Source of the DNA: Escherichia phage ECOH1 | Reading direction: 5' to 3' (one strand) | DNA: 64,000 nt | Sequence record: ON540300.1 | Shown: one piece after another, positions 5,659 to 64,000 of the stretch | How positions within the stretch are numbered: position 1 is the first letter of the stretch | Layout of the letters: each line of letters opens with the position of its first letter | Notes under the pieces: generated by a model | The model's database searches: none | The model's input: the letters and a program-made list of their open reading frames with translations, nothing else | What the model was told of the DNA's origin: nothing | Translations under genes and position numbers: made by a program

Positions 5659-7005
5659 ATGAGTTCGAATATCTTCAGACTTGCTGATAGATTATTCAAC
5701 CAACCTTTACTAGCCACTGAATCATTAGCTCACTCAGCAGCAACTTATGTGAATAACAGATTGCTGGGTGATGTCCAAGCAGCAGTAAACTTTGATAAAC
5801 CCAAAGGTGAAGCAAGAAGTCTTTTAAAAGTAAAAGATGACATTGCTATTATTCCTATTATGGGTGGTTTAACCCATCGTATGACATTCATTGATGCAAT
5901 GTGTACAGGTGGATTAAGCTCTTATGAAGGTTTGCGTAGAGGCTTTGACGAAGCTTTAGCAGATGAGTCAATTAAGACTATCGTTCTGCATATTGATTCT
6001 GGTGGTGGTGAAGCTTCAGGTTGCTTTGAATTAGCACGTCACATTATGGCTTCAAGAGGCCAAAAGAAAATTATTGCTTATGTAGATGAGTTCGCTTGTT
6101 CCGCTGCATATGCTCTTGCATCTTCTGCTGAAGAAATTATTGCATCACCAGATGCAGATGTTGGTTCTATTGGTGTAATCATGGTTCATCAGGAATTAAC
6201 TAAGGCATTTGAAAAGAATGGCGTAACAATTAACGTCATCAAAGCTGGTGAGTTTAAAGGTATGGGTTCACCATTCCAAGCACTCTCAGAAGAAAGCAAA
6301 GAAAGACTTCAAAAGAGAATTAATGATACCTACGCAACCTTTACAGGTTTTGTAGCTGAATCTCGTAATCTCTCTGAAGAAGCTGTAAAGAATACTGAGG
6401 CGAATGTTTATTCTGCTCAGGAAGCTCTTGAACTTGGTTTAATTAACTCAATCATGTCTCAAGATGATTTCTTAAATTACTTACAAGGTTCTGAAGAGGC
6501 TCCTGTAAGTTTAAACGTTAACAATTCAGGTGAAGAAATGACTGAACAAGAAAAGCAAGAACTAGAAGCTTTGCGTCTTCAGGTTGCTCAAATGAAAGCT
6601 AAAGAACAGGAAGCTGCTTTGTCAGATTTGACTAATAAGATTTCTGCTTCTGCTGAAGCTTTTGGATTTGATGCAAAAGAAGCTGCAACGACTATTTTAG
6701 GTGCTGGTCTTGATAACCCTCTGAGTGTTCTGTTTATGAATGCTATGGAAGGTGCTAACCAGAAACTTAATGAAACTATCGCATCCCATGCTTCTGCAAT
6801 GGAAGAAAAAGAATCAGAAATTACCAAGCTGAAAGAAACTGCTGGTGCTGTTCTTGAACATTCCAACGCTATGGAAGAAGTGGGTAATGACGGCGAAGCT
6901 GATTTGGTTGAAGAAGAAAAAGAACCAGCTAAGAATGCTTCCGAAGACACCGCTGAACAACGCAAACTGGCTCTCCAGAATGCTCTAAAATCTCTTATCA
7001 AATAA
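5659..7005 (+). CDS. prohead protease (S49/ClpP-like) fused to coiled-coil scaffold-like C-terminal region
   Basis: Motifs IPIMGG, DSGGGEASG, AYVDEFACSAAYALAS typical of S49-type peptidases; C-terminal half is Glu/Ala/Lys-rich and coiled-coil-like. Confidence 0.65.
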   Translation: MSSNIFRLADRLFNQPLLATESLAHSAATYVNNRLLGDVQAAVNFDKPKGEARSLLKVKDDIAIIPIMGGLTHRMTFIDAMCTGGLSSYEGLRRGFDEALADESIKTIVLHIDSGGGEASGCFELARHIMASRGQKKIIAYVDEFACSAAYALASSAEEIIASPDADVGSIGVIMVHQELTKAFEKNGVTINVIKAGEFKGMGSPFQALSEESKERLQKRINDTYATFTGFVAESRNLSEEAVKNTEANVYSAQEALELGLINSIMSQDDFLNYLQGSEEAPVSLNVNNSGEEMTEQEKQELEALRLQVAQMKAKEQEAALSDLTNKISASAEAFGFDAKEAATTILGAGLDNPLSVLFMNAMEGANQKLNETIASHASAMEEKESEITKLKETAGAVLEHSNAMEEVGNDGEADLVEEEKEPAKNASEDTAEQRKLALQNALKSLIK

Positions 7006-7394: not shown

Positions 7395-7427
7395 TAAAAA
7401 TAATAAGACATTCTGGAGAATTTTACA

Positions 7428-8534
7428 ATGTTGACTAATTCTGAAAAAAGCAGATTTTTCCTTGCTGACCTGACTGGTGAAGTCCAGTCTATCCCAAATA
7501 CTTATGGGTATATTTCCAACTTAGGTCTGTTCCGTTCAGCACCAATCACCCAAACTACTTTCCTGATGGATTTGACTGATTGGGATGTTAGCTTGCTTGA
7601 TGCGGTAGACCGTGATAGCCGTAAAGCAGAGACTAGCGCACCTGAGCGTGTTCGTCAAATCAGCTTCCCAATGATGTACTTCAAAGAAGTTGAAAGCATC
7701 ACTCCTGATGAAATTCAGGGTGTACGTCAGCCAGGCACTGCAAACGAACTGACTACTGAAGCTGTAGTACGTGCTAAGAAGCTGATGAAGATTCGTACCA
7801 AGTTCGATATTACTCGTGAGTTCCTGTTTATGCAAGCTCTGAAGGGTAAAGTTGTCGATGCTCGTGGTACTCTGTACGCTGACCTGTACAAGCAGTTCGA
7901 CGTTGAGAAGAAGACTGTTTACTTCGACCTTGCCAACCCTAATGCTGACATCGACGCTTCTATCGAAGAACTGCGTATGCACATGGAAGATGAAGCTAAG
8001 ACTGGCACTGTAATCAACGGTGAAGAAATTCACGTAGTCGTTGACCGTGTATTCTTCAGCAAACTGGTTAAGCACCCTAAGATTCGTGACGCTTATCTTG
8101 CACAGCAGACTCCGCTGGCTTGGCAACAGATTACTGGTTCTCTGAGAACTGGTGGTACTGACGGCGTTCAGGCTCATATGAACACCTTCTACTACGGTGG
8201 TGTTAAGTTTGTCCAGTACAACGGTAAGTTCAAAGACAAGCGTGGTAAGGTTCACACTCTGGTTGGCATTGATGGTGTAGCAGCAACTGTTGGTGTTGGT
8301 CATGCCTTCCCTAACGTATCTATGCTGGGTGAAGCTAACAACATCTTCGAAGTGGCATATGGCCCATGTCCTAAGATGGGTTATGCAAATACACTTGGTC
8401 AGGAACTGTACGTATTTGAATACGAAAAAGACCGTGACGAAGGTATTGACTTCGAAGCTCACTCTTACATGCTGCCATACTGCACTCGTCCTCAGTTGCT
8501 GGTAGATGTTCGCGCTGACGCTCAAGGTGGCTAA
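7428..8534 (+). CDS. major capsid protein (putative)
   Basis: 368-aa ORF following protease/scaffold; highly expressed-type codon usage; position. Confidence 0.6.
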   Translation: MLTNSEKSRFFLADLTGEVQSIPNTYGYISNLGLFRSAPITQTTFLMDLTDWDVSLLDAVDRDSRKAETSAPERVRQISFPMMYFKEVESITPDEIQGVRQPGTANELTTEAVVRAKKLMKIRTKFDITREFLFMQALKGKVVDARGTLYADLYKQFDVEKKTVYFDLANPNADIDASIEELRMHMEDEAKTGTVINGEEIHVVVDRVFFSKLVKHPKIRDAYLAQQTPLAWQQITGSLRTGGTDGVQAHMNTFYYGGVKFVQYNGKFKDKRGKVHTLVGIDGVAATVGVGHAFPNVSMLGEANNIFEVAYGPCPKMGYANTLGQELYVFEYEKDRDEGIDFEAHSYMLPYCTRPQLLVDVRADAQGG

Positions 8535-12987: not shown

Positions 12988-18350
<5,363 letters not shown>

Positions 18351-24832: not shown

Positions 24833-25030
24833 ATGCCTACAATCCTAGCAATTCTTCTAAAAAATCTAGGTAGCTTCTTCTGGAAACTCATTTTATCCCT
24901 TCTAAGTGAATACATGATTGAGAAAGTGTTCTTTAGGCTTGCAAGATACCTTGCGAGTAAAACAGACACACCTATTGATGATGAGTTCGTAGATAACTTA
25001 GAGAAAGCTTTTAAGGGGGAGAATAAATGA
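24833..25030 (+). CDS. small membrane protein (putative)
   Basis: 65-aa ORF with hydrophobic N-terminal segment, RBS gaggtg. Confidence 0.45.
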   Translation: MPTILAILLKNLGSFFWKLILSLLSEYMIEKVFFRLARYLASKTDTPIDDEFVDNLEKAFKGENK

Positions 25031-25398
25031 AGTGGCTAGAGGAAGCTTTTAAAAATAATATTGGTGCAATTGTAGTTGGTATTTTTAGTGTTATTGGGAT
25101 GTATACCACGATGCAAGTTTCAAGTGGTAAACAAGAAGTGTCTGTCTCAACAAAGTTACAGCAGCTAGATAATTATTCAAAAAGTAATTACTCAGCTATT
25201 CGTGATTTACAGTCTGACATGAGACTGCTACAGCTAGGGATGGAGAACCAGAAAGTCCAGTTAGAGAATGTTAAGGGTGAGAACGCAAAACTTACTAAGA
25301 CTCTTGATAAATTCTCTGATAGTGTGAACAATCTGGCTCAATCAGTATCAGCCCTCCAAGCTATTACTGAAAAGAACACAAAGAATACTGAAAAGTAA
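25027..25398 (+). CDS. membrane-anchored coiled-coil protein
   Basis: N-terminal TM segment (IGAIVVGIFSVIGMYTTM) followed by coiled-coil-like region. Confidence 0.45.
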   Translation: MKWLEEAFKNNIGAIVVGIFSVIGMYTTMQVSSGKQEVSVSTKLQQLDNYSKSNYSAIRDLQSDMRLLQLGMENQKVQLENVKGENAKLTKTLDKFSDSVNNLAQSVSALQAITEKNTKNTEK

Positions 25399-32034: not shown

Positions 32035-32568
32035 TCAACTTAGTTTTGCAAACTCTCCGTGGAGTTTCACAGCAGCTTCACAGTAAGCTTTATGGGCTTC
32101 TTCAGGTGTGTCATGGTGACCTAAAAACATCTTCTTACCTTTATAACTTATCTGTGCGACCCACTTACCAGACTTCTTCTTAAGGCTTACACCCTTGTAC
32201 CCAGATTTATTGGTGGCTAGTTTACCTTTATTCCAAGCACTTTGGAAGTCATCTGCTTCCCTTAAGTTTGCAATCCTGTTGTCAAGAGAGTCTCCGTTGA
32301 TATGGTCAATGATACCTTTTGGCATCTTGCCATATACATAAAGCCATGCGAGTCTGTGTGCTTTATGTGCTTTCTTGTCAAAATAGATACTAATCTGTTT
32401 ATGACCAGTTGAATCAGTCTGGATATTACCTGCCACCTTTCCTGCATAATTACTGTTAAAAACACTAACAGCTCTTGATTTACCTTCTCTACGAAGCCAA
32501 GTAAAGACCCCTGTTTCGGGGTCATAGTGCAGCAGCTCCTTTAAACGTTTTTGTAAAATTAAATCCAT
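32035..32568 (-). CDS. HNH endonuclease with AP2-type DNA-binding domain (free-standing homing-endonuclease-like)
   Basis: HNH-like IIDHINGDSLDNRIANL followed by AP2-like GYKGVSLKKKSGKWVAQISYKGKKMFLGHHDTPEEAHKAY. Confidence 0.65.
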   Translation of the reverse strand: MDLILQKRLKELLHYDPETGVFTWLRREGKSRAVSVFNSNYAGKVAGNIQTDSTGHKQISIYFDKKAHKAHRLAWLYVYGKMPKGIIDHINGDSLDNRIANLREADDFQSAWNKGKLATNKSGYKGVSLKKKSGKWVAQISYKGKKMFLGHHDTPEEAHKAYCEAAVKLHGEFAKLS

Positions 32569-47974: not shown

Positions 47975-48216
47975 TGACTTATGTAATTTACTCCAAAGCT
48001 GGATGCCCTCAGTGTGAGACTGCAAAGAATTTTGCAAAAGCTCGTGGTATTGGCCATGTTGTGAGAATGTTAGGGCAGGATTATGAACTATCAGACCTGA
48101 TGGAGATTGCACAGATGCCAGTTCGTCAGATGCCATTCATCATGAAAACTGATGGACAAAACCTAAAACCTGTTGGGACGCTACAGAATTTTATGGCAGA
48201 GGTGAATAATGCTTAA
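47974..48216 (+). CDS. glutaredoxin-like protein (NrdH-like)
   Basis: 80 aa with CxxC motif YSKAGCPQCETAK; context in nrd cluster. Confidence 0.55.
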   Translation: MTYVIYSKAGCPQCETAKNFAKARGIGHVVRMLGQDYELSDLMEIAQMPVRQMPFIMKTDGQNLKPVGTLQNFMAEVNNA

Positions 48217-48415
48217 ACGCATTTGGGAAGGTTTGGTTGTTGATGCACCAGCTATTGTGATTGGTATGCTTATTGTTAACCTATTTACTGACTTTGAACA
48301 AGGTTCATTGTTTGGAGCCATGTTACTATGGGTTATCTTTGAAATATTAGAGATACAGTTAGGTATCACTGAAAAACTAAGAAAACTCTTTGTGAAGTTT
48401 TCTAAAAAGATTTAA
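48209..48415 (+). CDS. small membrane protein
   Basis: 68-aa hydrophobic ORF. Confidence 0.4.
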   Translation: MLKRIWEGLVVDAPAIVIGMLIVNLFTDFEQGSLFGAMLLWVIFEILEIQLGITEKLRKLFVKFSKKI

Positions 48416-50933: not shown

Positions 50934-50970
50934 GGTGGTGTGAGTCTTGATAGGCTTGCATCACCTTTTT
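50934..50970 (+). terminator. intrinsic terminator-like hairpin
   Basis: ggtggtg-loop-catcacc followed by T5. Confidence 0.45.
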
Positions 50971-50985
50971 ATTTGGAGTTACATT

Positions 50986-51321
50986 ATGGACTTGTGGCTT
51001 TATGTAGCAGTTTGTGGGATTGTATGTCTGATAATCTTATTTATTCTTGGAGTAATGCGATTTAGAGACATCATACAGTCAGATTTTTTGCCTGAGTTTG
51101 CCATGATAGTTGGGGTTATTACCCTTTGTGTCTTGGCAGTGTTCTATTCATACAAAACTGTGATATGGATGGAGGCAAACAATTGTGTAAAAACTCATCA
51201 GCATCGTGAGGTTACTCATTTTGTGAGTGTACTTAGTGGTAGCACCACTATACTTGTCCCACAAACTTCTGTAGAGTATCTTTACACATGTGATAATGGT
51301 AAAACTATATGGTGGAATTAA
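50986..51321 (+). CDS. membrane protein
   Basis: ATG 50986 with RBS ggag; multiple hydrophobic segments. Confidence 0.45.
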   Translation: MDLWLYVAVCGIVCLIILFILGVMRFRDIIQSDFLPEFAMIVGVITLCVLAVFYSYKTVIWMEANNCVKTHQHREVTHFVSVLSGSTTILVPQTSVEYLYTCDNGKTIWWN

Positions 51322-51524
51322 CAATGACAACACTCTTAAAAGTATTGATGCCCATACTACATATAGCAGTCTTCTTCTTTGGTATTAGTGTTATGGTATG
51401 GGGCTTTTCAGACCCACAATGGAGTTTTTCATATCATGGTCAGATGGACTTATGGTCATGCTTCAAACCATTTTTAGGGTTAGCTATAGCATTCAGTGCA
51501 TTACCAACTAAGGTGAAATTATGA
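51309..51524 (+). CDS. small membrane protein
   Basis: 71-aa hydrophobic ORF. Confidence 0.4.
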   Translation: MVELTMTTLLKVLMPILHIAVFFFGISVMVWGFSDPQWSFSYHGQMDLWSCFKPFLGLAIAFSALPTKVKL

Positions 51525-56937: not shown

Positions 56938-57273
56938 ATGAAAATCAAAGAGATGAACATCAACATTGTCTTAGAAGAGCGTTGGGAGAACATCAAGAAG
57001 CCTGAAAATGGTCATAAGTTCCTCAATAAAATCTTAGTAGCAGCTAAAGAAGAACTGACTGGCAAGATTGCAGCAGCAATCACAATAAAGGTCTGTGTAA
57101 AAGGTCTTCCAGACAATCACCAATTTGCACTTGACGAGTTTAAAGAGAGCTTCTACAATCCAAACAAACAGATGCTTGAAAGTAACTTTGCAGTGTCTAC
57201 AAGTATCGTCCATGACAGAAGCTTTATCCTTTACAAGAATATGAGAGGTGAGTCATGCAAGCATATTGGATAG
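56938..57273 (+). CDS. hypothetical protein
   Basis: 111-aa ORF. Confidence 0.4.
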   Translation: MKIKEMNINIVLEERWENIKKPENGHKFLNKILVAAKEELTGKIAAAITIKVCVKGLPDNHQFALDEFKESFYNPNKQMLESNFAVSTSIVHDRSFILYKNMRGESCKHIG

Positions 57274-57431
57274 AAATTTTGCTATCACTTGGTAGTGTAG
57301 CAGTGTTTGTTTATCTTCTTTGTAAGTACTTTGCAGAGTACAAGAAGTGTGATTACTGCAACGGAGAAGGGTATACAAGAGCAGGTTGTTGCCCTATGTG
57401 TGGCGGTTCTGGTAAAATGTTTAATAAGTAA
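57255..57431 (+). CDS. small membrane protein with DnaJ-type zinc-finger repeats (58 aa), not in the ORF track
   Basis: Translation MQAYWIEILLSLGSVAVFVYLLCKYFAEYKKCDYCNGEGYTRAGCCPMCGGSGKMFNK: TM helix plus two CxxCxGxG motifs. Confidence 0.4.
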   Translation: MQAYWIEILLSLGSVAVFVYLLCKYFAEYKKCDYCNGEGYTRAGCCPMCGGSGKMFNK

Positions 57432-57459: not shown

Positions 57460-59826
57460 ATGCGCATGGTAAATGACCACGCAGAAGTGATTAAGAGTTC
57501 AACTTCTTTAGAGACGTCTCAAGCACAGATTACAATGACACCTGAGATGTTCAGCCTTTTGAGTTCTGGTGTATATACCTTTAAAGAAAGGGCAGTGATT
57601 CGTGAACTGTCATGTAACGCAGTAGATGCTCAGAAAGAAGCTGGAAAAGAGAACATCCCGTTCCATGTGCATTTACCTACTCGTTTTGAGCCTTACTTTG
57701 AAGTTCGTGATTTTGGAACTGGATTGACTCATGATAAAGTTATGAGTTTGTACCTAAACTACGGGGCTTCTACGAAGAATGACTCTAATGACTACATTGG
57801 TGCAATGGGTATCGGCTCAAAATCCCCATTTGCAATTGCTCAGTCATTCACAGTATCCAGCTATGTTGACGGTGTTGTTAACAAGTACTCTGTTTACCTT
57901 GAGAATGGTATCCCTCAAGTAACTAAGCTAACCACCAACCCAACGAATGAACCTAATGGTTTAGCTGTACGTGTAGCAGTTGCTGACCATCGTATTTCAA
58001 AGTTCTTTGAAGAGGCTGGTAATGTATACTCATACTTTGCTGTAAAACCAGAAAGTAATATTGAGTATGACGATGTATTAGCAGATATGAACGTCATTGC
58101 CCGTGAAGAAGGTGTCTATGATGCCATGATTCATAAGCAAAGCTGGCGTTCTAGTGGTAACAGGACAGAGTTTAATGTGGTGATGGGTAACATTGCCTAC
58201 CCTGTTAATATGGAAGCATTACTTGGTGATGATTTCTTCAAAGTATTGCCAGAATTTTTCCGTAGGAGCGTAGACCTTGTAAACATCTACATGCCTATTG
58301 GTTCAGTTGCTATTGCAGCTTCTCGTGAAGCATTGCAGATGAATGACACGACAAAAAATGTTATCATTGAGGCTACTAAAAAGATAACTGAAGCAATTAC
58401 AAAGGATGTTATCAAGAAAGTTAATAGCCAACCTACACTCATGGATGCTGCACAGGCTTATGCTGAGTTACGTTTGAACTCACGAGAGATGTTTAATGCT
58501 GTGTGTCCAAAGCTAGAGTGGGGAGGCGTTAAGCTTGATTCTCTGGAAGAAGAATTACTAAACATTCGTCGTGGAATTATCTACGCAGAAGACGGCTCAG
58601 TTGTCTATGAACGCGATGGTAAAGGTAATATTAAGGTTGATAGGAACGGAAACAACATCCCTAAAGTAGATTATCTTTATAATCCAGTTGCTTATGTTAA
58701 GTTTAACTCTTTAGAGAGTAAGATTCGTGCAACAGCACTTTCCTACACTCAAGAGGCGAGTATGTTCAATATCTTTGGTGCAATGCGCAAAAGCCAAATT
58801 GAACAGTTTTTGTTTGTTATCAATGACCGTCGCAATAAAAATGGTACTGAGAAGACTGTAGGACGCAATCAGATTCTGCGTGGTGCATGTCGAGACTATG
58901 CCAGTGAGTCAAGTCTGTTTCACAGATACAATGGTATTGTCTTTGTATTCTCGACTGAAAAAGAGTTAGACGACCTAATCAATCTGCACAAACTTGATAA
59001 AAGCTTGTTAAAGATTGTGAAGATGTCTGATAAGGAACACCATTATCAGCGTAAAGAAGCTGTAAGAGGTGTTGTAAAACTTTGGAAAGCTGTTCCAGCA
59101 GAAGGTGTAGCTTCCTATAAAGAGGTTTCAGAGGACTTTGATACAATTGAAGAACCTCAGTTTTATATTAAGGCAGTAGGCGACACAGTTGATGGCGAAT
59201 GTTTTTGCTCATCTCCAGAAGATGTAGCTAAGTCAGTTGCCAATGTCATTGGAAAGACAGTATATGTTTTCCGAAAAGCAAATTGGAAAAAGATACCAGA
59301 AGACTGGATTGAAGTAGATGAGAAGCTCTTGAACGACAGCTTAACTGATGTTCATTGGATTAATCATAACAGATATATGACACGTATCTATATGAATGGT
59401 GTCCTCGACCTTACAAGCAGTTGGATTATTGCCAGAAACTTTACGTTCAATAACAGAAAGATTTCTCGTGGTTATTGTTATTCACGAGATACAAACAAAA
59501 CTATCTTCTTAGAAGGTAATGAAGATGCTGTTGAGGCAATGTTTGGTAAAATCCAATACGTTGCTGCACCGTTTGCATACACTTACACTATTAGTAGGTT
59601 GCAAACTTTGAAAGATTGCCTTGACAATGATACAAAGCTGTACAAGAAAATTAAGAAAGCTGGTGACCGTATGGTCATCAAGGTGACAAACTATCTTTCA
59701 AAAAGAAAACAAGAAAACTTCTTGCTTTCTCATTTAGATTGGAATAAAGTGTCACCTATTGAAGTGAGTAAGTTCTTAGGCTTTGATGTGAAGTGTGTTC
59801 CAGAAGGAACTACAATTTACGATTAA
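57460..59826 (+). CDS. rIIA: rIIA-like protein with N-terminal GHKL/histidine-kinase-like ATPase fold
   Basis: N-terminal motifs ELSCNAVDA and VRDFGTGL...GAMGIGSKS; 788 aa; followed by a second large ORF. Confidence 0.5.
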   Translation: MRMVNDHAEVIKSSTSLETSQAQITMTPEMFSLLSSGVYTFKERAVIRELSCNAVDAQKEAGKENIPFHVHLPTRFEPYFEVRDFGTGLTHDKVMSLYLNYGASTKNDSNDYIGAMGIGSKSPFAIAQSFTVSSYVDGVVNKYSVYLENGIPQVTKLTTNPTNEPNGLAVRVAVADHRISKFFEEAGNVYSYFAVKPESNIEYDDVLADMNVIAREEGVYDAMIHKQSWRSSGNRTEFNVVMGNIAYPVNMEALLGDDFFKVLPEFFRRSVDLVNIYMPIGSVAIAASREALQMNDTTKNVIIEATKKITEAITKDVIKKVNSQPTLMDAAQAYAELRLNSREMFNAVCPKLEWGGVKLDSLEEELLNIRRGIIYAEDGSVVYERDGKGNIKVDRNGNNIPKVDYLYNPVAYVKFNSLESKIRATALSYTQEASMFNIFGAMRKSQIEQFLFVINDRRNKNGTEKTVGRNQILRGACRDYASESSLFHRYNGIVFVFSTEKELDDLINLHKLDKSLLKIVKMSDKEHHYQRKEAVRGVVKLWKAVPAEGVASYKEVSEDFDTIEEPQFYIKAVGDTVDGECFCSSPEDVAKSVANVIGKTVYVFRKANWKKIPEDWIEVDEKLLNDSLTDVHWINHNRYMTRIYMNGVLDLTSSWIIARNFTFNNRKISRGYCYSRDTNKTIFLEGNEDAVEAMFGKIQYVAAPFAYTYTISRLQTLKDCLDNDTKLYKKIKKAGDRMVIKVTNYLSKRKQENFLLSHLDWNKVSPIEVSKFLGFDVKCVPEGTTIYD

Positions 59827-59905: not shown

Positions 59906-61015
59906 ATGACTACTAAAACTAAAGCACAGATTGACGCAGAAATTTACAAACTGGTTAAAGAAGGCAAGCTGACTAAAACAGCTATTGCACAGAAGTTCAA
60001 TACTTCAACCCGTTCAGTTGGTCGTGCTGTAGAGCGTCATGAAGCAACCTTAAAGGGTAAGAAAAAGACAGCTTCGACACCAGCTACGAAGACTTTGAAG
60101 CAAGTTGCTAAGACCTTTAAGAAGAAAGCTGGCAAACCAGTTGAAAAGGTCGTTAAAGACACTGTACAGAAAGTTCCAGTAAATAAACTGCACGAAGCTA
60201 TGCAGAAAGATGACAAGATTGAGTACATGATTACTGGCGACTCTGTAATTATGACTTACGGTTCAGAATCTGAAATTGTTGAGTCTACTCATCCGAACTA
60301 TCAAGAGATTGTAGTCCATGTTGTGAAAGGTGAGTTCAAGAAAGCTTTCGAACTGATGAACATTCGTAAATCTATCGAAAACTTCACTCAGGGTGCTATC
60401 ACAATCAAAGGTGACAAGCTATTCTACGGTGCTGTTGAAATGCGTTCTACTCTGGTTGACCGTATCCTTCACATGATGAAGACTGGTGATAAAGGTTTTG
60501 AACGACTTGTAATGTTCTTCGAAAAACTGATGGAAAACCCATCTAAAGACTCTGTAGAACAACTTTGGGGATTCGTATCTCACCTTGATGTTGAAATTGA
60601 TGAAGAAGGCTACATCATTGGTTGGAAGAAAGTCTCTACTCGTGAAGGCAAGCTGGTTGACTCTCACACCTACAAAGTACCTAATGATTTAGGTAACATT
60701 GTAGAAATGCCACGTTGGATGGTTGATAACAACCGTAACGTAACTTGCTCTCAGGGTCTTCATGTTGGTGCTTGGGATTATGTTCGTTGCTTCTCAGGTG
60801 ATACAATCCTGAAGGTTCGTGTCCATCCACGAGATGTTGTATCTGTTCCGACTGATTACAACGATATGAAGATGCGTTCATCCCGTTATGAAGTTGCAGC
60901 AATCGTTGATAATCAACGTAAAGTGTTGAAAGCATGGGACGGTAAGACTGAAGCTTTGCATGTCATCGTCGGTACTGCTGGTGAACTCATCTCCCAACGT
61001 AAACGTGAAATCTAA
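59906..61015 (+). CDS. rIIB-like protein (putative)
   Basis: 369-aa ORF immediately downstream of rIIA-like gene; assignment by context only. Confidence 0.3.
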   Translation: MTTKTKAQIDAEIYKLVKEGKLTKTAIAQKFNTSTRSVGRAVERHEATLKGKKKTASTPATKTLKQVAKTFKKKAGKPVEKVVKDTVQKVPVNKLHEAMQKDDKIEYMITGDSVIMTYGSESEIVESTHPNYQEIVVHVVKGEFKKAFELMNIRKSIENFTQGAITIKGDKLFYGAVEMRSTLVDRILHMMKTGDKGFERLVMFFEKLMENPSKDSVEQLWGFVSHLDVEIDEEGYIIGWKKVSTREGKLVDSHTYKVPNDLGNIVEMPRWMVDNNRNVTCSQGLHVGAWDYVRCFSGDTILKVRVHPRDVVSVPTDYNDMKMRSSRYEVAAIVDNQRKVLKAWDGKTEALHVIVGTAGELISQRKREI

Positions 61016-61032
61016 TAAGTAATTTCTTAAAA

Positions 61033-61054
61033 GGCTGCTTCGGCGGCCTTTTTT
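61033..61054 (+). terminator. intrinsic terminator
   Basis: ggctgc-ttcg-gcggcc followed by T6. Confidence 0.6.
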
Positions 61055-61115
61055 ATTTGTATTTTGTGCAGAGTGCTGTATAATTGTTGTCACGATAAAC
61101 TAAACAGGAGAACCA

Positions 61116-61664
61116 ATGAAGAAATTGATTCTAGGATTGTGCTTAATGTTTACAGCACATTTATCTTATGCAGTTGACTGCCCAGAGCTATCAATTAGCC
61201 AAAAAGTTAACATGTTAAAAGCTTACCAGTATGGTGAGAACAACATGGGGAAAGGCTGGGGTATTACTCTAGCAGCTATAGCCTTACAAGAGTCAGAGTT
61301 AGGTCTGAAGGTAGAGAATAAAAAGACCCATGACTATGGTATTTTCCAGAATCACTTGAAGACTGTTGTAAAGCGTAACAAAATTAGTCCTAATGTGGCT
61401 AAAAAGAAACTCTTAAAAGATTTTGACTATGCAGCAAAAGAGACACATAAAGAGCTTGAGTTTTGGACTAAGGTACATGGTCACCCGAAGTCAAAGAAGA
61501 CTTTACAAAAAGTTTTAGCATCATATAATGCTGGGTATTCGTACAAAATCCCTAAAGCTAAGAAATACTCTCAAGATGTCTATAACAATATGAAAGTTAT
61601 TGCTCAATGTGAATTTGCAACAAACATTTCTAAGGTAAATCATGAAAAAATTAAGAAAGCCTGA
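61116..61664 (+). CDS. secreted lytic transglycosylase (SLT-domain)-like protein, endolysin candidate
   Basis: Signal peptide MKKLILGLCLMFTAHLSYA; catalytic-like segment AIALQESELG...YGIFQNH. Confidence 0.45.
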   Translation: MKKLILGLCLMFTAHLSYAVDCPELSISQKVNMLKAYQYGENNMGKGWGITLAAIALQESELGLKVENKKTHDYGIFQNHLKTVVKRNKISPNVAKKKLLKDFDYAAKETHKELEFWTKVHGHPKSKKTLQKVLASYNAGYSYKIPKAKKYSQDVYNNMKVIAQCEFATNISKVNHEKIKKA

Positions 61665-62337
61665 TGAAGTCCTGTGCCACGCTTATGACTTGCATCCTCA
61701 TGAGTTAGGTCTTGATTCCTGTGTATGGACTCCAGAACAGTGCAGGGATTTTGAAGACACTGCAAGAGAAGTTGTATGTTCACTTGAAGAGTTCCACACA
61801 TCAGAACCAATTGTGAACGTTGTGGATAAAGAAACTGGACAAGCTATAGGTGTAAGTCGTGATAGTTTAGTCATAGTCAATAAAGACCTTGTAGAAAAAG
61901 GTAACCTCATCTTAGCAGATATTGATGGTGTTCTTACAAATTTTAATCACGAAGATTGCTCAACGGAATTGACTGATGGGTCATTCTCACAGTACACTAA
62001 TCTTCTTGACTCTGTAAGAGCAAAACCAACATATGTTTTTAGTATTATTGATGCAATTGCTAATCATGCTACCATTGGACTCTTGACAGCTAGAGGTGAA
62101 TCTCAGAGAATACCTACTGAGATGTTTTTAAGGCATAACATAGAGCATGATTACATGCTTTTTATGCGTGGTTTTGGAACTAACTCTATAAGTGCAGAAA
62201 GTTTAAAAGCTAGGATGATTCAGTCTTGCATTCTTCCTTACTTTAATATAGTATGCTTTATAGAAGATACAGAGAAGAATGTTCAGAAGGTAAACAGAAT
62301 CCTTCCACACATTAAAACCATGTTAGCTAAACATTGA
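61642..62337 (+). CDS. HAD-superfamily hydrolase-like protein
   Basis: Motif ILADIDGVLTNF (DxDG); overlaps upstream gene by 23 nt. Confidence 0.4.
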   Translation: MKKLRKPDEVLCHAYDLHPHELGLDSCVWTPEQCRDFEDTAREVVCSLEEFHTSEPIVNVVDKETGQAIGVSRDSLVIVNKDLVEKGNLILADIDGVLTNFNHEDCSTELTDGSFSQYTNLLDSVRAKPTYVFSIIDAIANHATIGLLTARGESQRIPTEMFLRHNIEHDYMLFMRGFGTNSISAESLKARMIQSCILPYFNIVCFIEDTEKNVQKVNRILPHIKTMLAKH

Positions 62338-62348
62338 GAGAAAAACTT

Positions 62349-62813
62349 ATGAACAATATCATTACGGTAGCACTGGACGATACGACAAACAAATCTGTAG
62401 TAGTTCGTAAATTGATTCAAGGTAACTTTGAAGGTAAAATTTTTCGTGCTGTCAATGTAAAAGCTGATGGCAGCATTCGTGAATATCGTGCATTGTTGAA
62501 CGTTAAGAAGCACGTAAAAGGTGTTGGTTCAACGACTGCACACAAAGAAAACCTGATGACTATCTATGATATGGGTAAGGCTTCAGAGTTAGGTGCTGAA
62601 GGTATCGTTAAAGAAGGTGCTCCGTATCGCTCTTTCAATCTGGAAACTACTCTTATGCTTTCCTTTACGAGTGGTTCTAAAACAATCACTTATCTCTTTA
62701 CTGATGCTGCAACGGTATCTGCTATTAAGGATGGCACTGTCAAAGCTGGCGTAGTTGCTGCTGCAAAAGCTTCTTCGATGGCTGCAAATATCCTTGCTAA
62801 AGTCCTCGGTTAA
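62349..62813 (+). CDS. hypothetical protein
   Basis: ATG 62349 with RBS gagaaaaa. Confidence 0.4.
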   Translation: MNNIITVALDDTTNKSVVVRKLIQGNFEGKIFRAVNVKADGSIREYRALLNVKKHVKGVGSTTAHKENLMTIYDMGKASELGAEGIVKEGAPYRSFNLETTLMLSFTSGSKTITYLFTDAATVSAIKDGTVKAGVVAAAKASSMAANILAKVLG

Positions 62814-62825
62814 GGTTAAGATACA

Positions 62826-62846
62826 GGCTCCTTCGGGAGCCTTTTT
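62826..62846 (+). terminator. intrinsic terminator
   Basis: ggctcc-ttcg-ggagcc followed by T5. Confidence 0.6.
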
Positions 62847-62865
62847 CATTTCAGGAGATTGTTAA

Positions 62866-63213
62866 ATGACATTTAAAGAGTTCTGTCAAGCTACTTTCAT
62901 AATTGTTTTCTTAGTTGGGGCAGGTGTCTGGGGAGGATACTCTTACAGAGACTACCAAGTTGCTGAAGCTGAGCTAAATAATGAGAAACTAATAAGTGTT
63001 GCTAAAGATGCTTATCAGGAAGGTTTAGCCACACTCAGCACCAATTACAAAAATGATTTGAAAGACGTGCTTGCTAAGAATAAGCATACAAAAGAGGTAC
63101 TAACGTATGAAAAGACTAAGCCAGAGTTTTATAATGTTTGTGTTACTGATAATTATGTCAGGGTGTTCAACGAACAAAGTGAACAGTACATTCAAAAACT
63201 CCCAAGTAAGTGA
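62866..63213 (+). CDS. i-spanin-like protein (N-terminal TM + periplasmic domain)
   Basis: N-terminal hydrophobic FIIVFLVGAGVWGGY followed by charged helical region; overlapped by a lipoprotein ORF in another frame. Confidence 0.45.
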   Translation: MTFKEFCQATFIIVFLVGAGVWGGYSYRDYQVAEAELNNEKLISVAKDAYQEGLATLSTNYKNDLKDVLAKNKHTKEVLTYEKTKPEFYNVCVTDNYVRVFNEQSEQYIQKLPSK

Positions 63214-63376
63214 GAGTGACAAGTACACTCAAGAAGATTCAAGATTCACTGTCAAAGGTAATACTGGTAGTGATGTGGCATCAGCCCTTGAGTTTTACCG
63301 TGATGGTTTTTACCAGTGCACAATCAAAGCTAATAACCTTATTGATATGATTTTATTAGGAAACAAACAGCAATGA
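63107..63376 (+). CDS. o-spanin-like outer-membrane lipoprotein, overlapping the 3' end of the i-spanin-like gene
   Basis: Lipoprotein signal with lipobox LLIIMSGC; overlaps 62866..63213 in a different frame. Confidence 0.45.
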   Translation: MKRLSQSFIMFVLLIIMSGCSTNKVNSTFKNSQVSESDKYTQEDSRFTVKGNTGSDVASALEFYRDGFYQCTIKANNLIDMILLGNKQQ

Positions 63377-63642
63377 CAGAGAATGAAGACACTTTCTATG
63401 TAGAAGGGTACTTACTGCTACCACGACCAAAAGAAACTTATATGCGGGTTGATTTCTCACCAACCATTATGGATAACGTGATGTGTCATATCTTTATGCA
63501 AGGTGTCACAGCACAACTTAAGCATGTTGGTAAAGAGTGCAAAATAAAGGTTGACACTCATCCAGAAATCAAAGAGAATCACTACACATGGTTCTTACCA
63601 GACTCTAAAGAAATCTTAGCAGTTCTTAAAACGAGGAAATGA
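63373..63642 (+). CDS. hypothetical protein
   Basis: 89-aa coupled ORF. Confidence 0.4.
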   Translation: MTENEDTFYVEGYLLLPRPKETYMRVDFSPTIMDNVMCHIFMQGVTAQLKHVGKECKIKVDTHPEIKENHYTWFLPDSKEILAVLKTRK

Positions 63643-63953
63643 TTATGCAATTCCAGCCAACAAATCGTGGGTTTTCTTATGCAGAATTTAAAGATGCTAA
63701 AGGAGAGATTTGTACTTTACAAGAAAGTTCATCATATGAACCATGTATCTGGTTAGGTGCTAAAGAGGTCTCTGTTCAGTACCTAGATGGTGGCTGGAAA
63801 ACACTTGATATCCCAGCATTAGTAGGCAAAGATTTTGTAGGTAACCAAAGAATGAAACTCAACCAAGAACAGGTGAGAGAGTTATTACCATACCTTCAGT
63901 ACTTTGCTGAAAATGGTGAATTACCAGCAGAGGAACTTACAAATGCAGATTAA
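63639..63953 (+). CDS. hypothetical protein
   Basis: 104-aa coupled ORF. Confidence 0.4.
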   Translation: MIMQFQPTNRGFSYAEFKDAKGEICTLQESSSYEPCIWLGAKEVSVQYLDGGWKTLDIPALVGKDFVGNQRMKLNQEQVRELLPYLQYFAENGELPAEELTNAD

Positions 63954-64000
63954 TGGAAGAGATTTTGTAGCCGTTTACTACGAGAACGATAAAGAAGTTG

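Follow-up and report, generated by a model that had tools for sequence, protein, structure and literature searches.

Do the genes downstream of rIIB in Felix O1-like phages form a lysis cassette, or do they serve separate tasks at the cell envelope? The question arises from a stretch of 64,000 nucleotides of Escherichia phage ECOH1 (ON540300.1), here called the window; all features described below lie on its + strand. An earlier note on this DNA had described a lysis-related cluster, in which a gene for a secreted protein with a lytic-transglycosylase-like (SLT) segment accompanies an overlapping spanin-like gene pair. The three open reading frames concerned, 61116-61664, 62866-63213 and 63107-63376, were placed correctly there, exact to the base. 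The window is 98.2% identical in DNA sequence to Escherichia phage vB_EcoM_E9, with which it is collinear over E9 positions 15090-79176, and 257 related records were found. It belongs to a Felixounavirus genome, that of a Felix O1-like myophage; phage EC6 is 97% identical to it across the SLT-to-spanin region. The SLT gene and the spanin pair are part of an rII-proximal non-structural block, and this block carries two independent envelope-directed functions, the spanin pair and a Vs.1-type transglycosylase. We are confident of the account as a whole, in which an overlapped spanin of the JH2/Felix O1 family stands beside a separate secreted orthologue of T4 Vs.1 that is most likely an accessory enzyme.

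The first gene of the spanin pair, at 62866-63213, encodes an i-spanin of 115 aa, recognised by its reading frame, its hydropathy and a match to PHROG 1152 'Rz-like spanin' (8.9e-42). The only strongly hydrophobic segment lies at residues 6-24 (KD19 = 1.75), and the N-terminal transmembrane domain (TMD) falls within residues ~6-26. It is conserved in homologues and is followed by a segment that is net acidic. Cys92 is invariant and lies in the motif FYNVCVTDNYVRVFNE. An AF2 model of the protein is mostly helical at low confidence (mean pLDDT 56.2, pTM 0.44), and for this reason a helical or coiled-coil fold of its periplasmic part stays no more than a prediction.

The second gene, at 63107-63376, encodes an o-spanin of 89 aa, for which a lipoprotein signal, selection and a conserved geometry argue. 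The protein starts MKRLSQSFIMFVLLIIMSGC, and an AAGAGG Shine-Dalgarno sequence lies 5' of the start codon. Its lipoprotein signal, MKRLSQSFIMFVLLIIMSG followed by Cys, ends in the lipobox IMSGC; the Cys20 codon is at 63164-63166 and the next residues are Ser-Thr (C20-ST), the Ser at +2, in place of an Asp, being the mark of outer-membrane sorting. Export signals, here as in the i-spanin and the SLT-like protein, were judged by hydropathy and motif rules. A lipoprotein-signal filter that considered each start codon of the 64 kb, in six frames, passed the o-spanin frame alone. The -3 residue of the lipobox is atypical, being Met here and Thr in two distant relatives (SeKF_13 and EP335). The mature protein would be 69 aa long; it has an invariant Cys71 and no proline, and the o-spanin matches PHROG 456 (1.5e-4) and PHROG 4180 (1.4e-50). 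The two genes overlap by 107 nt (63107-63213), with the o-spanin in the +1 frame of the i-spanin gene. Only 40% of the o-spanin lies inside that gene, and the 'embedded' spanin class was accordingly rejected in favour of the 'overlapped' class.

Selection was assessed in 27 distinct related DNA sequences, over the part of the o-spanin gene downstream of the overlap. Variable sites there number 15, 8 and 46 at codon positions 1, 2 and 3, respectively, so that 46 of 54 third positions vary. Single-site differences are predominantly synonymous in the o-spanin frame (4759 synonymous to 716 non-synonymous) and predominantly non-synonymous in the other two (440:5118 and 243:5184). Within the overlap, variability is lower and there is no third-position bias in either frame. 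Both overlapping frames are coding and under purifying selection. All 29 of the IMG/VR relatives share the overlap geometry and both cysteines, with the lipobox (M/I)SGC; Cys20 is invariant and is followed by Ser21 in every relative. Kolesnikvirus SeKF_13 and EP335 also retain the overlap, the signal and both cysteines, with identity down at 26-36%, the o-spanin being 36% identical.

Sequence comparison supports the assignment of the overlapping pair as a two-component spanin of the overlapped type, within the JH2/Felix O1 family; the i-spanin and its counterpart in phage JH2 are 100% identical. This agrees with the earlier description of a TM protein overlapped by an IMSGC lipoprotein frame in the manner of spanins. 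The pair is already known, having been catalogued for the genus and annotated in many GenBank relatives: the o-spanin is named as such in Moogle, Sf14 and others, and the i-spanin is annotated in close relatives too. No report of a genetic or biochemical test of any member of the JH2 spanin family was found.

The SLT-like gene at 61116-61664 encodes a protein of 182 aa. Its N-terminus, MKK followed by LILGLCLMFTAHL and then SYA before VD, has the n-, h- and c-regions of a Sec signal; the n-region contains Lys, and the small residues of an SPase I-type site are Ser at -3 and Ala at -1. By motif rules, the predicted signal peptide comprises residues 1-19 (61116-61172). Homologues carry sites of the same type (AVA-SD, ATA-SD, AIA-DD and TFA-ED, the hyphen marking the cut), and a signal-like N-terminus is found in 152 of 168 Vs.1-family representatives. 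A SAR (signal-anchor-release) endolysin was considered for this protein and rejected, as the hydrophobic core is only ~13 residues long, is not Gly/Ala-rich and is followed by an AxA-type site.

The SLT motifs ALQ-ES (E59, S60), GIFQ (Q78) and SYNAGY (Y137, N138, G140) are all present, with the codon of the predicted catalytic residue, Glu59, at 61290-61292. These six residues and Y151 are invariant or nearly so in 15 sequences, down to 29% identity, and the ES dipeptide occurs in the expected region in 163 of the 168 family representatives. The Pfam SLT profile (PF01464) gives the protein 18.8 bits, below the gathering score of 21.3. Its membership is supported at the level of the family even though its own score falls short, because 14 of 15 homologues match the profile at E <= 0.01 (best 8.2e-12). 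The best sequence match in the PDB is EtgA (E = 5e-4). The structure model is confident and its fold matches are GH23 enzymes, with T7 gp16 and phi29 gp13 among the weaker ones. The protein is thus predicted to be a signal-peptide enzyme of the GH23/SLT fold, as the earlier note had proposed; a lytic transglycosylase and a goose-type lysozyme cannot be told apart by this fold. A Cys22/Cys165 pair is conserved in Felix-type SLT-like proteins and is probably a periplasmic disulfide pair. GenBank and UniRef records call the protein 'putative lysin', 'Lysin' or 'hypothetical protein'.

T4 Vs.1 (NP_049725) matches the SLT-like protein by BLASTP at E = 2e-16, with 32% identity over 174 aa, and tblastn matches fall on annotated vs.1 genes in RB32, AR1, CC31, nt-1 and Aeromonas phage 65. 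By these sequence relationships, the protein is identified as the orthologue of T4 Vs.1, a family present in more than 2,000 phage records. The marginal SLT match of T4 Vs.1 was already pointed out in 2006 (PMC1524935). No activity data for any member of the family were found in the searchable literature, nor was any test of a lysis involvement of the SLT-like protein or Vs.1 found there. The order of an SLT gene followed by a HAD gene recurs in L034 and SeKF_13. In another phage, L035, the SLT homologue adjoins Gad2- and Mom-type (anti-defence-type) genes, and a lysozyme and a u-spanin-like gene are located elsewhere.

The surroundings of the SLT-like gene bear on whether it forms a unit with the spanins. 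A terminator-like GC hairpin with a T-run, found by consensus scan after rIIB (61029-61052), separates rIIA/rIIB from it. This hairpin is kept in relatives of ~77% identity, in which a single G-to-A change replaces a G-U pair by A-U. A TATAAT -10-like hexamer (61079-61084) and an AGGAG Shine-Dalgarno sequence (61106-61110) can be read from the sequence 5' of the gene. The hexamer is conserved in most relatives, Moogle-like ones included; its -35 element is weak (TTGTAT), and a promoter scan that needs 9/12 matches did not list it. By its consensus, the hexamer may be the promoter of the SLT gene.

Two further genes follow. The first, at 61642-62337, shares 23 nt with the end of the SLT gene and encodes a HAD-phosphatase-like protein annotated 'polynucleotide kinase' (PHROG 3970, 1.3e-132), with a weak Pfam HAD_PNKP match and a DIDGV motif; no P-loop was seen in it by eye. 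The second, at 62349-62813, encodes a protein of 154 aa with a weak WYL_2/SH3-barrel likeness in a profile match; its open reading frame begins at TTG 62334, and ATG 62349 is the start used in GenBank relatives. Neither gene has a lysis function. Beyond them, the consensus scan lists another terminator-like hairpin, AGGCTCC-TTCG-GGAGCCT with a T-run (62825-62842), which sits 24 nt 5' of the i-spanin start and is conserved in most relatives, Moogle-like ones included.

Both genes and this hairpin therefore occupy the 1.2 kb between the SLT gene and the spanins, and there is no contiguous holin-endolysin-spanin unit in the region. A TM segment, which would mark a holin candidate, is missing from all four other neighbouring ORFs, in line with the earlier remark that no obvious holin is adjacent. 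In E9, the nearest relative, the canonical endolysin is a lysozyme-type protein of 154 aa encoded at 5851-6315 (PHROG 7, 1.2e-58), and a counterpart is absent from the window. The main endolysin is a lysozyme-type enzyme (PHROG endolysin) encoded outside the window, and not the SLT-like protein. In T4, vs.1 (~62 kb) and pseT.3/pseT.2 (~135 kb) are ~73 kb apart. A dispersed arrangement of lysis genes, as in T4, is supported, and the earlier suggestion of a dispersed lysis module stands. The reading as one 'lysis-related cluster' is not supported, given the two unrelated genes and conserved hairpin in between, the SLT gene's own TATAAT and its overlap with the phosphatase gene, the distance between vs.1 and the spanin genes in T4, and the arrangement in L035.

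By analogy with lambda Rz/Rz1 and T4 PseT.3/PseT.2, the i-spanin would be held in the inner membrane through its N-terminal TMD, whilst the o-spanin would be lipidated at Cys20 and then sorted to the outer membrane. The C-terminal regions of the two proteins may join across the periplasm, where disulfides via Cys92 and/or Cys71 could stabilise the complex. Once the endolysin had cleared the murein meshwork, the complex would fuse or disrupt the outer membrane, the last step of lysis. The SLT-like protein would be exported by the Sec pathway and cleaved by signal peptidase to act as a periplasmic lytic transglycosylase. It could build up in the periplasm without a holin and help to degrade murein upon de-energisation of the membrane during lysis. 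By analogy with two precedents, the F352 SLT endolysin and kayvirus Tgl, it is most likely an accessory muralytic enzyme.

Could the SLT-like protein instead be a true, holin-independent endolysin that makes up a real lysis cassette with the nearby spanins? A signal peptide and an SLT fold are what the verified SP-endolysin of F352 combines (PMC7692668), and the lysin labels in some database records, like the 1.2 kb distance to the spanins, point the same way. The separate endolysin of E9 makes the proposal improbable, as do the two unrelated genes and conserved hairpin that intervene, the lack of an adjacent holin candidate and a resemblance to F352 Lys that is confined to the signal peptide. 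L035 has both a Vs.1 homologue and a canonical lysozyme. The same is true of T4, in which the canonical lysozyme is the product of gene e. Little weight at all can be given to a virion-associated murein hydrolase for DNA injection, although SLT/lysozyme domains occur in tail or internal virion proteins of many phages and T7 gp16 and phi29 gp13 are among the weaker fold matches. A small single-domain protein encoded outside the structural module, whose Sec-type signal peptide is predicted to be cleaved off and whose Cys22 and Cys165 probably form a disulfide in the periplasm, does not suit that role, and the searched text of the cryo-EM paper on the Felixounavirus Bas63 mentions a transglycosylase only with regard to hub proteins of another system. 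It is possible, if rather unlikely, that the Vs.1-family enzyme acts before or apart from lysis, in an early remodelling of periplasmic murein that might alter the sacculus against superinfecting phages or tune lysis timing. The gene follows rIIA/rIIB immediately, in the company of non-structural and host-interaction genes, and is preceded by the terminator-like hairpin and the conserved sigma-70-like TATAAT, a setting that fits such a role at least as well as one in lysis. The T4 homologue lies between regB and vs, far from the spanin genes, and that of L035 beside Gad2- and Mom-type genes. Holin-independent export would make the enzyme periplasmic as soon as it is made, and the phages that carry the family have their own endolysins, as far as examined. 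However, the promoter assignment is consensus-based, and the conclusion drawn for kayvirus Tgl, which is early-gene-like and secreted, was that it is an additional endolysin (PMC7150955). It is doubtful that the Vs.1 enzyme, shared by T4, Felix O1-like and Vi1-like phages, has no part in lysis and is instead an early, holin-independent periplasmic murein-remodelling factor; were this true, its closeness to the spanins in this genus would be a coincidence. Such a factor might, for example, change the sacculus in a way that keeps superinfecting phages out, or prime the wall so that lysis and the action of the spanins, when triggered, run fast.

The spanin assignment has a competitor of its own, in which the 89-aa frame is a chance ORF or the pair serves the envelope in some other way, for instance as a lipoprotein and its membrane partner in superinfection exclusion. 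Several GenBank records leave the frame out or place its start at Met17 and so lose the signal peptide, and a functional test of the family was not found in the literature. Moreover, the protein has no proline, unlike lambda Rz1, which is proline-rich; T4-type and Jersey-type o-spanins likewise lack the Rz1 proline stretch (PMC6139136). Chance or another function is very improbable in view of the strong frame-specific purifying selection and the matches to PHROG spanin families. The frame is also the sole lipoprotein-like ORF in 64 kb, and the gene on whose 3' end it precisely falls codes for a protein with an N-terminal TMD; in other genera the overlapped pairing, the signal and both cysteines persist at 26-36% identity.

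The spanin pair and the transglycosylase are both real but ordinary, and little in them is new. Their interest is partly one of annotation. In many deposited Felixounavirus genomes the o-spanin is absent from the annotation or begins at Met17 and so lacks its signal peptide, or a spurious ORF is annotated in a different frame. The window has the correct start at 63107. The gene after rIIB can now be read as the Felix O1-group orthologue of T4 Vs.1, and hence as one of a very widespread group of predicted periplasmic lytic transglycosylases. Felix O1-like phages would lend themselves to a study of Vs.1 function: they are small, genetic work on them is feasible, and Bas63 already has a genome-wide knockout library.

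Among known spanins, those of JH2 and Felix O1 belong to the same family as the present pair and show no material difference from it. The overlapped JH2 i- and o-spanin families list Felix01, FO1a, EC6, WV8, Moogle and UAB_Phi87, an assignment that is bioinformatic, according to the consulted part of the survey (Kongari et al. 2018, PMC6139136). The survey gives at least one periplasmic cysteine for intermolecular disulfides in 507 of 528 spanin systems; the pair described here has Cys92 in the i-spanin and Cys71 in the o-spanin. In architecture, which is the level of comparison here and not sequence, lambda Rz/Rz1 and P2 LysB/LysC likewise combine an inner-membrane protein that has an N-terminal TMD with an outer-membrane lipoprotein whose gene uses the +1 frame; periplasmic cysteines are common to them, and P2 shares the overlapped arrangement. 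Rz1, in contrast, is fully embedded and a proline-rich protein of 40 aa (PMC6139136), whereas the o-spanin here is 40% embedded and, when mature, has 69 aa and no proline. Unlike the lambda and P2 genes, the present pair is not beside a holin or endolysin gene.

T4 PseT.3 and PseT.2 are of similar size (117 and 99 aa), and their genes, like those described here, lie in a non-structural region near a polynucleotide-kinase-type gene, away from holin and endolysin genes. They are separate genes, however, where those of the window overlap, and BLASTP detected no sequence similarity to either protein (E = 17 and 8.1). The T4 spanins complement a lambda Rz/Rz1 defect and are located away from the holin and endolysin, and for T4-type and Jersey-type o-spanins, which are without the Rz1 proline-rich stretch, secondary structure is predicted (PMC6139136).

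As to the transglycosylase, T4 Vs.1 and the protein of the window are of nearly equal length (181 and 182 aa) and share an N-terminal signal-like sequence and the motifs QES, (Y/F)QN and SYN(A/S)G. They differ in that T4 Vs.1 is without the Cys22/Cys165 pair of Felix-type proteins, and in that vs.1 has regB and vs as neighbours, whereas here they are rIIB and the HAD phosphatase gene. EtgA, a small lytic transglycosylase of a secretion system, is only ~20% identical, and the SLT-like gene is phage-encoded and without secretion-system context. IagB, IpgF and VirB1 are further specialised small lytic transglycosylases of secretion systems. Campylobacter phage F352 Lys and staphylococcal kayvirus Tgl are, like the enzyme predicted here, phage-encoded, Sec-exported and of lytic-transglycosylase type. 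Tgl is secreted in addition to a major endolysin and can be transcribed by the host RNA polymerase like an early gene (PMC7150955); it differs in having a Gram-positive host. In F352, too, the lysis genes are dispersed and the spanin pair is of the overlapped type, and its Lys is an experimentally verified signal-peptide SLT endolysin (PMC7692668). Sequence comparison detects no similarity between Lys and the SLT-like protein beyond the signal peptide, so Lys is an analogue and not a relative. Lys is also the main endolysin of its phage, whereas the SLT-like protein stands beside a separate canonical endolysin.

The segment at 60900-64000 is 98.2% identical in DNA comparison with phage records to Escherichia phage vB_EcoM_E9 (E9), the nearest relative, whose positions 15090-79176 are collinear with the whole window. 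It is matched by 257 phage records, nearly all of Felix O1-like myophages (Felixounavirus) with Escherichia, Salmonella, Shigella or Citrobacter as hosts; phage EC6 is 97% identical over the spanin region. On the plus strand, rIIA (57460-59826) and rIIB (59906-61015) are followed by the gene for the 182-aa SLT-like protein (61116-61664), a HAD-type phosphatase gene annotated as "polynucleotide kinase" (61642-62337), which overlaps it by 23 nt, and a gene for a 154- or 159-aa protein with no assigned function (62334/62349-62813). Next on this strand come the gene for a 115-aa transmembrane-domain (TMD) protein, the i-spanin (62866-63213), the overlapping 89-aa lipoprotein ORF, the o-spanin (63107-63376), and, directly after it, genes for two small soluble proteins. 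An ORF check reproduced exactly all coordinates of the earlier note, which had proposed one lysis-related cluster at 61116-63376. An NCBIfam search with five proteins gave no match above any cut-off. The "polynucleotide kinase" carries the HAD phosphatase motif ILADIDGVLT and only a weak HAD_PNKP Pfam match, and inspection by eye revealed no P-loop kinase motif; judged from its sequence, it is probably a phosphatase alone. Elsewhere, a stretch of ~530 bp (32039-32568) that does not align with E9 is filled by a 177-aa ORF on the minus strand (32035-32568), which by eye looks like an HNH/AP2-type homing endonuclease; the stretch may be a mobile insertion.

The overlapping genes at 62866-63376 very probably encode a spanin, as the earlier note had proposed. 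The 115-aa product has a single hydrophobic segment (residues 6-24), and its gene is overlapped over 107 nt, in the +1 frame, by the 89-aa ORF, which has a Shine-Dalgarno sequence upstream and begins MKRLSQSFIMFVLLIIMSGC. When a lipoprotein-signal filter was applied to every start codon in the six frames of the 64 kb, this ORF was the sole match. Beyond the overlap, its 27 distinct relatives show 15, 8 and 46 variable sites at codon positions 1, 2 and 3, respectively, and a synonymous to non-synonymous ratio of 4759:716 when read in its own frame; for the other two frames the ratios are 440:5118 and 243:5184. Its uniqueness under the filter, together with this frame-specific variation, excludes chance as the origin of the ORF. 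There is less variability within the overlap, where neither frame is biased to third positions, a pattern that would be expected of dual coding. Offset, length, the (M/I)SGC lipobox and both cysteines are kept in 29 of 29 IMG/VR relatives. A full-length match to PHROG 1152 ("Rz-like spanin"; 8.9e-42) was obtained for the i-spanin, and phage JH2 has an i-spanin identical to it (100%); with these matches, every feature by which a two-component spanin is recognized in sequence is found in the pair. An AF2 model of the i-spanin (pLDDT 56) was too uncertain for use.

The spanin reading is correct but already known. One i-spanin and one o-spanin family, classed as "overlapped", have been catalogued for phages JH2, EC6, FO1a, Felix01, Moogle, Mushroom, UAB_phi87 and WV8 (Kongari et al. 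2018, PMC6139136), the labels i-spanin and o-spanin are given to the two genes in several near-identical GenBank relatives, and the genes are treated in a comparative study of Felixounavirus (PMC8300805). More distant versions occur in the Kolesnikvirus SeKF_13, at 26-35% identity to the two proteins, and in phage EP335, whose o-spanin is 32% identical. In both, the TMD is N-terminal, the genes overlap, and the signal has the form MKRL-hydrophobic-Cys with Ser at +2; also kept are the motifs P-x-F-x-N-x-C-x-x-D-x-Y-x-x-x-FNE in the i-spanin and LE(F/Y/W)(Y/W)(R/Q)D, then a conserved Cys and N-x-LI(D/E), in the o-spanin. The two Cys residues are invariant throughout. Close relatives have the o-spanin wrongly annotated. 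In phages fjerdesal and Pr103Blw it starts at Met17 (window position 63155), so that the signal peptide is lost, and the E9 record is without it, having instead a 36-aa ORF in another frame that corresponds to 63216-63326. The GenBank records with o-spanin mis-annotation are MN850605, MW481326 and PP886229, and the largest single o-spanin cluster in the protein database (303 member sequences) contains the 73-aa truncated form.

The SLT-like protein was described in the earlier note as secreted and lytic-transglycosylase-like, and both descriptions were supported. It begins MKK-LILGLCLMFTAHL-SYA/VD, a standard Sec signal peptide as predicted, and carries the SLT family-1 motifs ALQES, GIFQ and SYNAGY. 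Its Pfam SLT score of 18.8 bits lies just short of the 21.3-bit threshold; 14 of 15 homologs match the family (best 8.2e-12). Across these 15 homologs, with identity down to 29%, E59, Q78, Y137, N138, G140 and Y151 do not vary, and S60 is almost invariant. The aligned homologs have either both or neither of Cys22 and Cys165, with a possible exception in one that is N-terminally truncated (P0013), which fits a putative periplasmic disulfide. A search of solved structures with the single sequence gave no match; EtgA and goose-type lysozymes were found only with the family profile. Two other readings of the N-terminus were rejected. In the LGLC motif (residues 6-9) the Cys comes too early for a lipoprotein, Leu at -1 is unsuited to a lipobox, and homologs do not keep the motif; as a SAR domain, the hydrophobic core is too short (~13 residues), is followed by an AxA-type site and is not Gly/Ala-rich. 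It is highly likely that the enzyme has a GH23 fold and is exported by Sec independently of any holin.

The SLT-like protein belongs to a known family. When phage genomes were searched in translation, it proved to be the ortholog of T4 Vs.1, with 2128 matching records, among them vs.1 genes annotated in T4-like phages as well as Vi1-like homologs; in direct comparison it is 32% identical to T4 Vs.1 (E = 2e-16). An exhaustive profile search returned 1265 cluster representatives at E <= 1e-3, and nearly all of those among the matches listed are 150-270 aa long. A signal-like N-terminus is present in 152 of 168 family sequences, and the ES dipeptide in the expected region in 163 of the 168. One homolog (P0020) comes from Campylobacter coli, and no Campylobacter phage record is close to it. 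A comparative genomics paper of 2006 (PMC1524935) reported the marginal SLT likeness of vs.1 and took it to suggest "some role in cell lysis"; a literature search for functional studies of Vs.1 returned this paper alone and nothing functional since. Some records already label the SLT-like protein a "putative lysin". The text of the PhageMaP preprint describes lysis and membrane genes as mostly non-essential and gp79/gp80 as NAD-synthesis genes; gene-level fitness data for the Bas63 orthologs were not found in that text.

The SLT-like gene and the spanins probably do not constitute one functional cluster, since two genes and a terminator-like hairpin stand between them. A terminator-like hairpin and a TATAAT, both conserved, precede the SLT-like gene. 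Between the HAD phosphatase gene and the i-spanin gene come one unrelated gene and then another conserved terminator-like hairpin (62825-62842). In L034, a distant relative whose SLT homolog has 38% identity, the SLT to HAD phosphatase order is kept, and out to 13.6 kb from the homolog there is no lipoprotein-like ORF. In another phage with a homolog, the metagenomic L035, the homolog adjoins Gad2- and Mom-type genes, and the genes for a lysozyme and a u-spanin-like protein are at other positions. The region is better described as holding two unrelated envelope-directed functions, 1.2 kb apart by chance in a non-structural region.

Several observations on these neighbourhoods may be added. The hairpins at 61029-61052 and 62825-62842, GC-rich with TTCG loops and T-runs, flank a unit of three genes, for the SLT-like protein, the HAD phosphatase and the 154-aa protein. 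Relatives of ~77% identity retain the two hairpins, with a G-U to A-U change in the 61029-61052 stem. In L035 (8001-8878) the 3' end of the SLT homolog is overlapped by a gene for a 103-aa lipoprotein, and near a Phage_lysozyme gene a 131-aa ORF (13776-14171, minus strand) has a lipobox at its N-terminus and a hydrophobic segment at its C-terminus, in the manner of a unimolecular spanin. In L034 two small membrane proteins (7398-7905), one of 92 aa and one of 75 aa with two TMDs, are encoded between rIIB and the SLT homolog, where the window has only the intergenic terminator-like hairpin and a promoter-like element; in that lineage the secreted enzyme may have them as holin-like partners.

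The remark that the lysis module may be dispersed was right, because genes intervene between the SLT-like gene and the spanins, the endolysin is elsewhere and no holin is adjacent. A tblastn search of the window for a canonical endolysin found none; in E9 the principal endolysin is a separate 154-aa lysozyme-type protein (5851-6315; PHROG 7, 1.2e-58), outside the window. No neighbour of the SLT-like or spanin genes has a transmembrane segment, in agreement with the earlier note. The nearest small membrane-protein ORFs, all on the plus strand, are three among the ribonucleotide-reductase genes (48209-48415, 50947-51321 and 51309-51524), with one or two predicted TMDs, and one for a 58-aa protein with one TMD just 5' of rIIA (57255-57431; PHROG 3931, function unassigned); none of the four products matches a holin family. 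After its TMD the 58-aa protein has the sequence CDYCNGEG...CCPMCGGSG, reminiscent of a DnaJ-type zinc-finger motif. Farther away, a 123-aa protein (25027-25398, plus strand; PHROG 4038, unassigned) has a TMD at its N-terminus and a C-terminal region that is long and polar. It shows a faint match to an Rz-like spanin family, and its gene comes shortly after the tail-fibre gene in E9 coordinates; it is a candidate membrane-acting late protein, perhaps a holin, an antiholin or the like.

The best-supported guess on the role of this Vs.1-type periplasmic transglycosylase, resting on two precedents, is that the enzyme would be an accessory muralytic one, helping the main endolysin after membrane de-energisation. 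Campylobacter phage F352 has an experimentally characterised SLT endolysin that is Sec-dependent and holin-activated (PMC7692668). This endolysin was considered as a homolog and rejected; BLASTP and profile comparison align the signal peptide only, so that it is an analogue and nothing closer. Kayvirus Tgl is secreted and acts alongside the major endolysin LysK; its gene can, as early genes are, be transcribed by host RNA polymerase (PMC7150955). That the Vs.1-like enzyme acts before lysis, in murein remodelling, is a rather unlikely alternative to this accessory muralytic role.

The arrangement has a parallel in T4, where the lysis genes are likewise dispersed and vs.1 lies ~73 kb from the spanin genes. 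In T4 (NC_000866, 61386-62271) vs.1 is two genes from tk.4, which encodes a macro-domain/A1pp phosphatase, and a macro-domain "phosphatase" gene is found a few genes downstream of the spanins in Felix O1-like phages and Kolesnikvirus (E9 79841-80626); this may point to a neighbourhood loosely shared by the T4 group and the Felix O1-like/Kolesnikvirus group. The T4 spanins PseT.3/PseT.2 complement lambda Rz/Rz1 and require their cysteines (PMC6139136). By analogy with these two systems, the pair described here would be lipidated, form a disulfide-linked complex and disrupt the outer membrane, acting at the final step of lysis. Because BLASTP found no similarity between the T4 spanins and this pair, the resemblance to T4 is one of architecture and position only.
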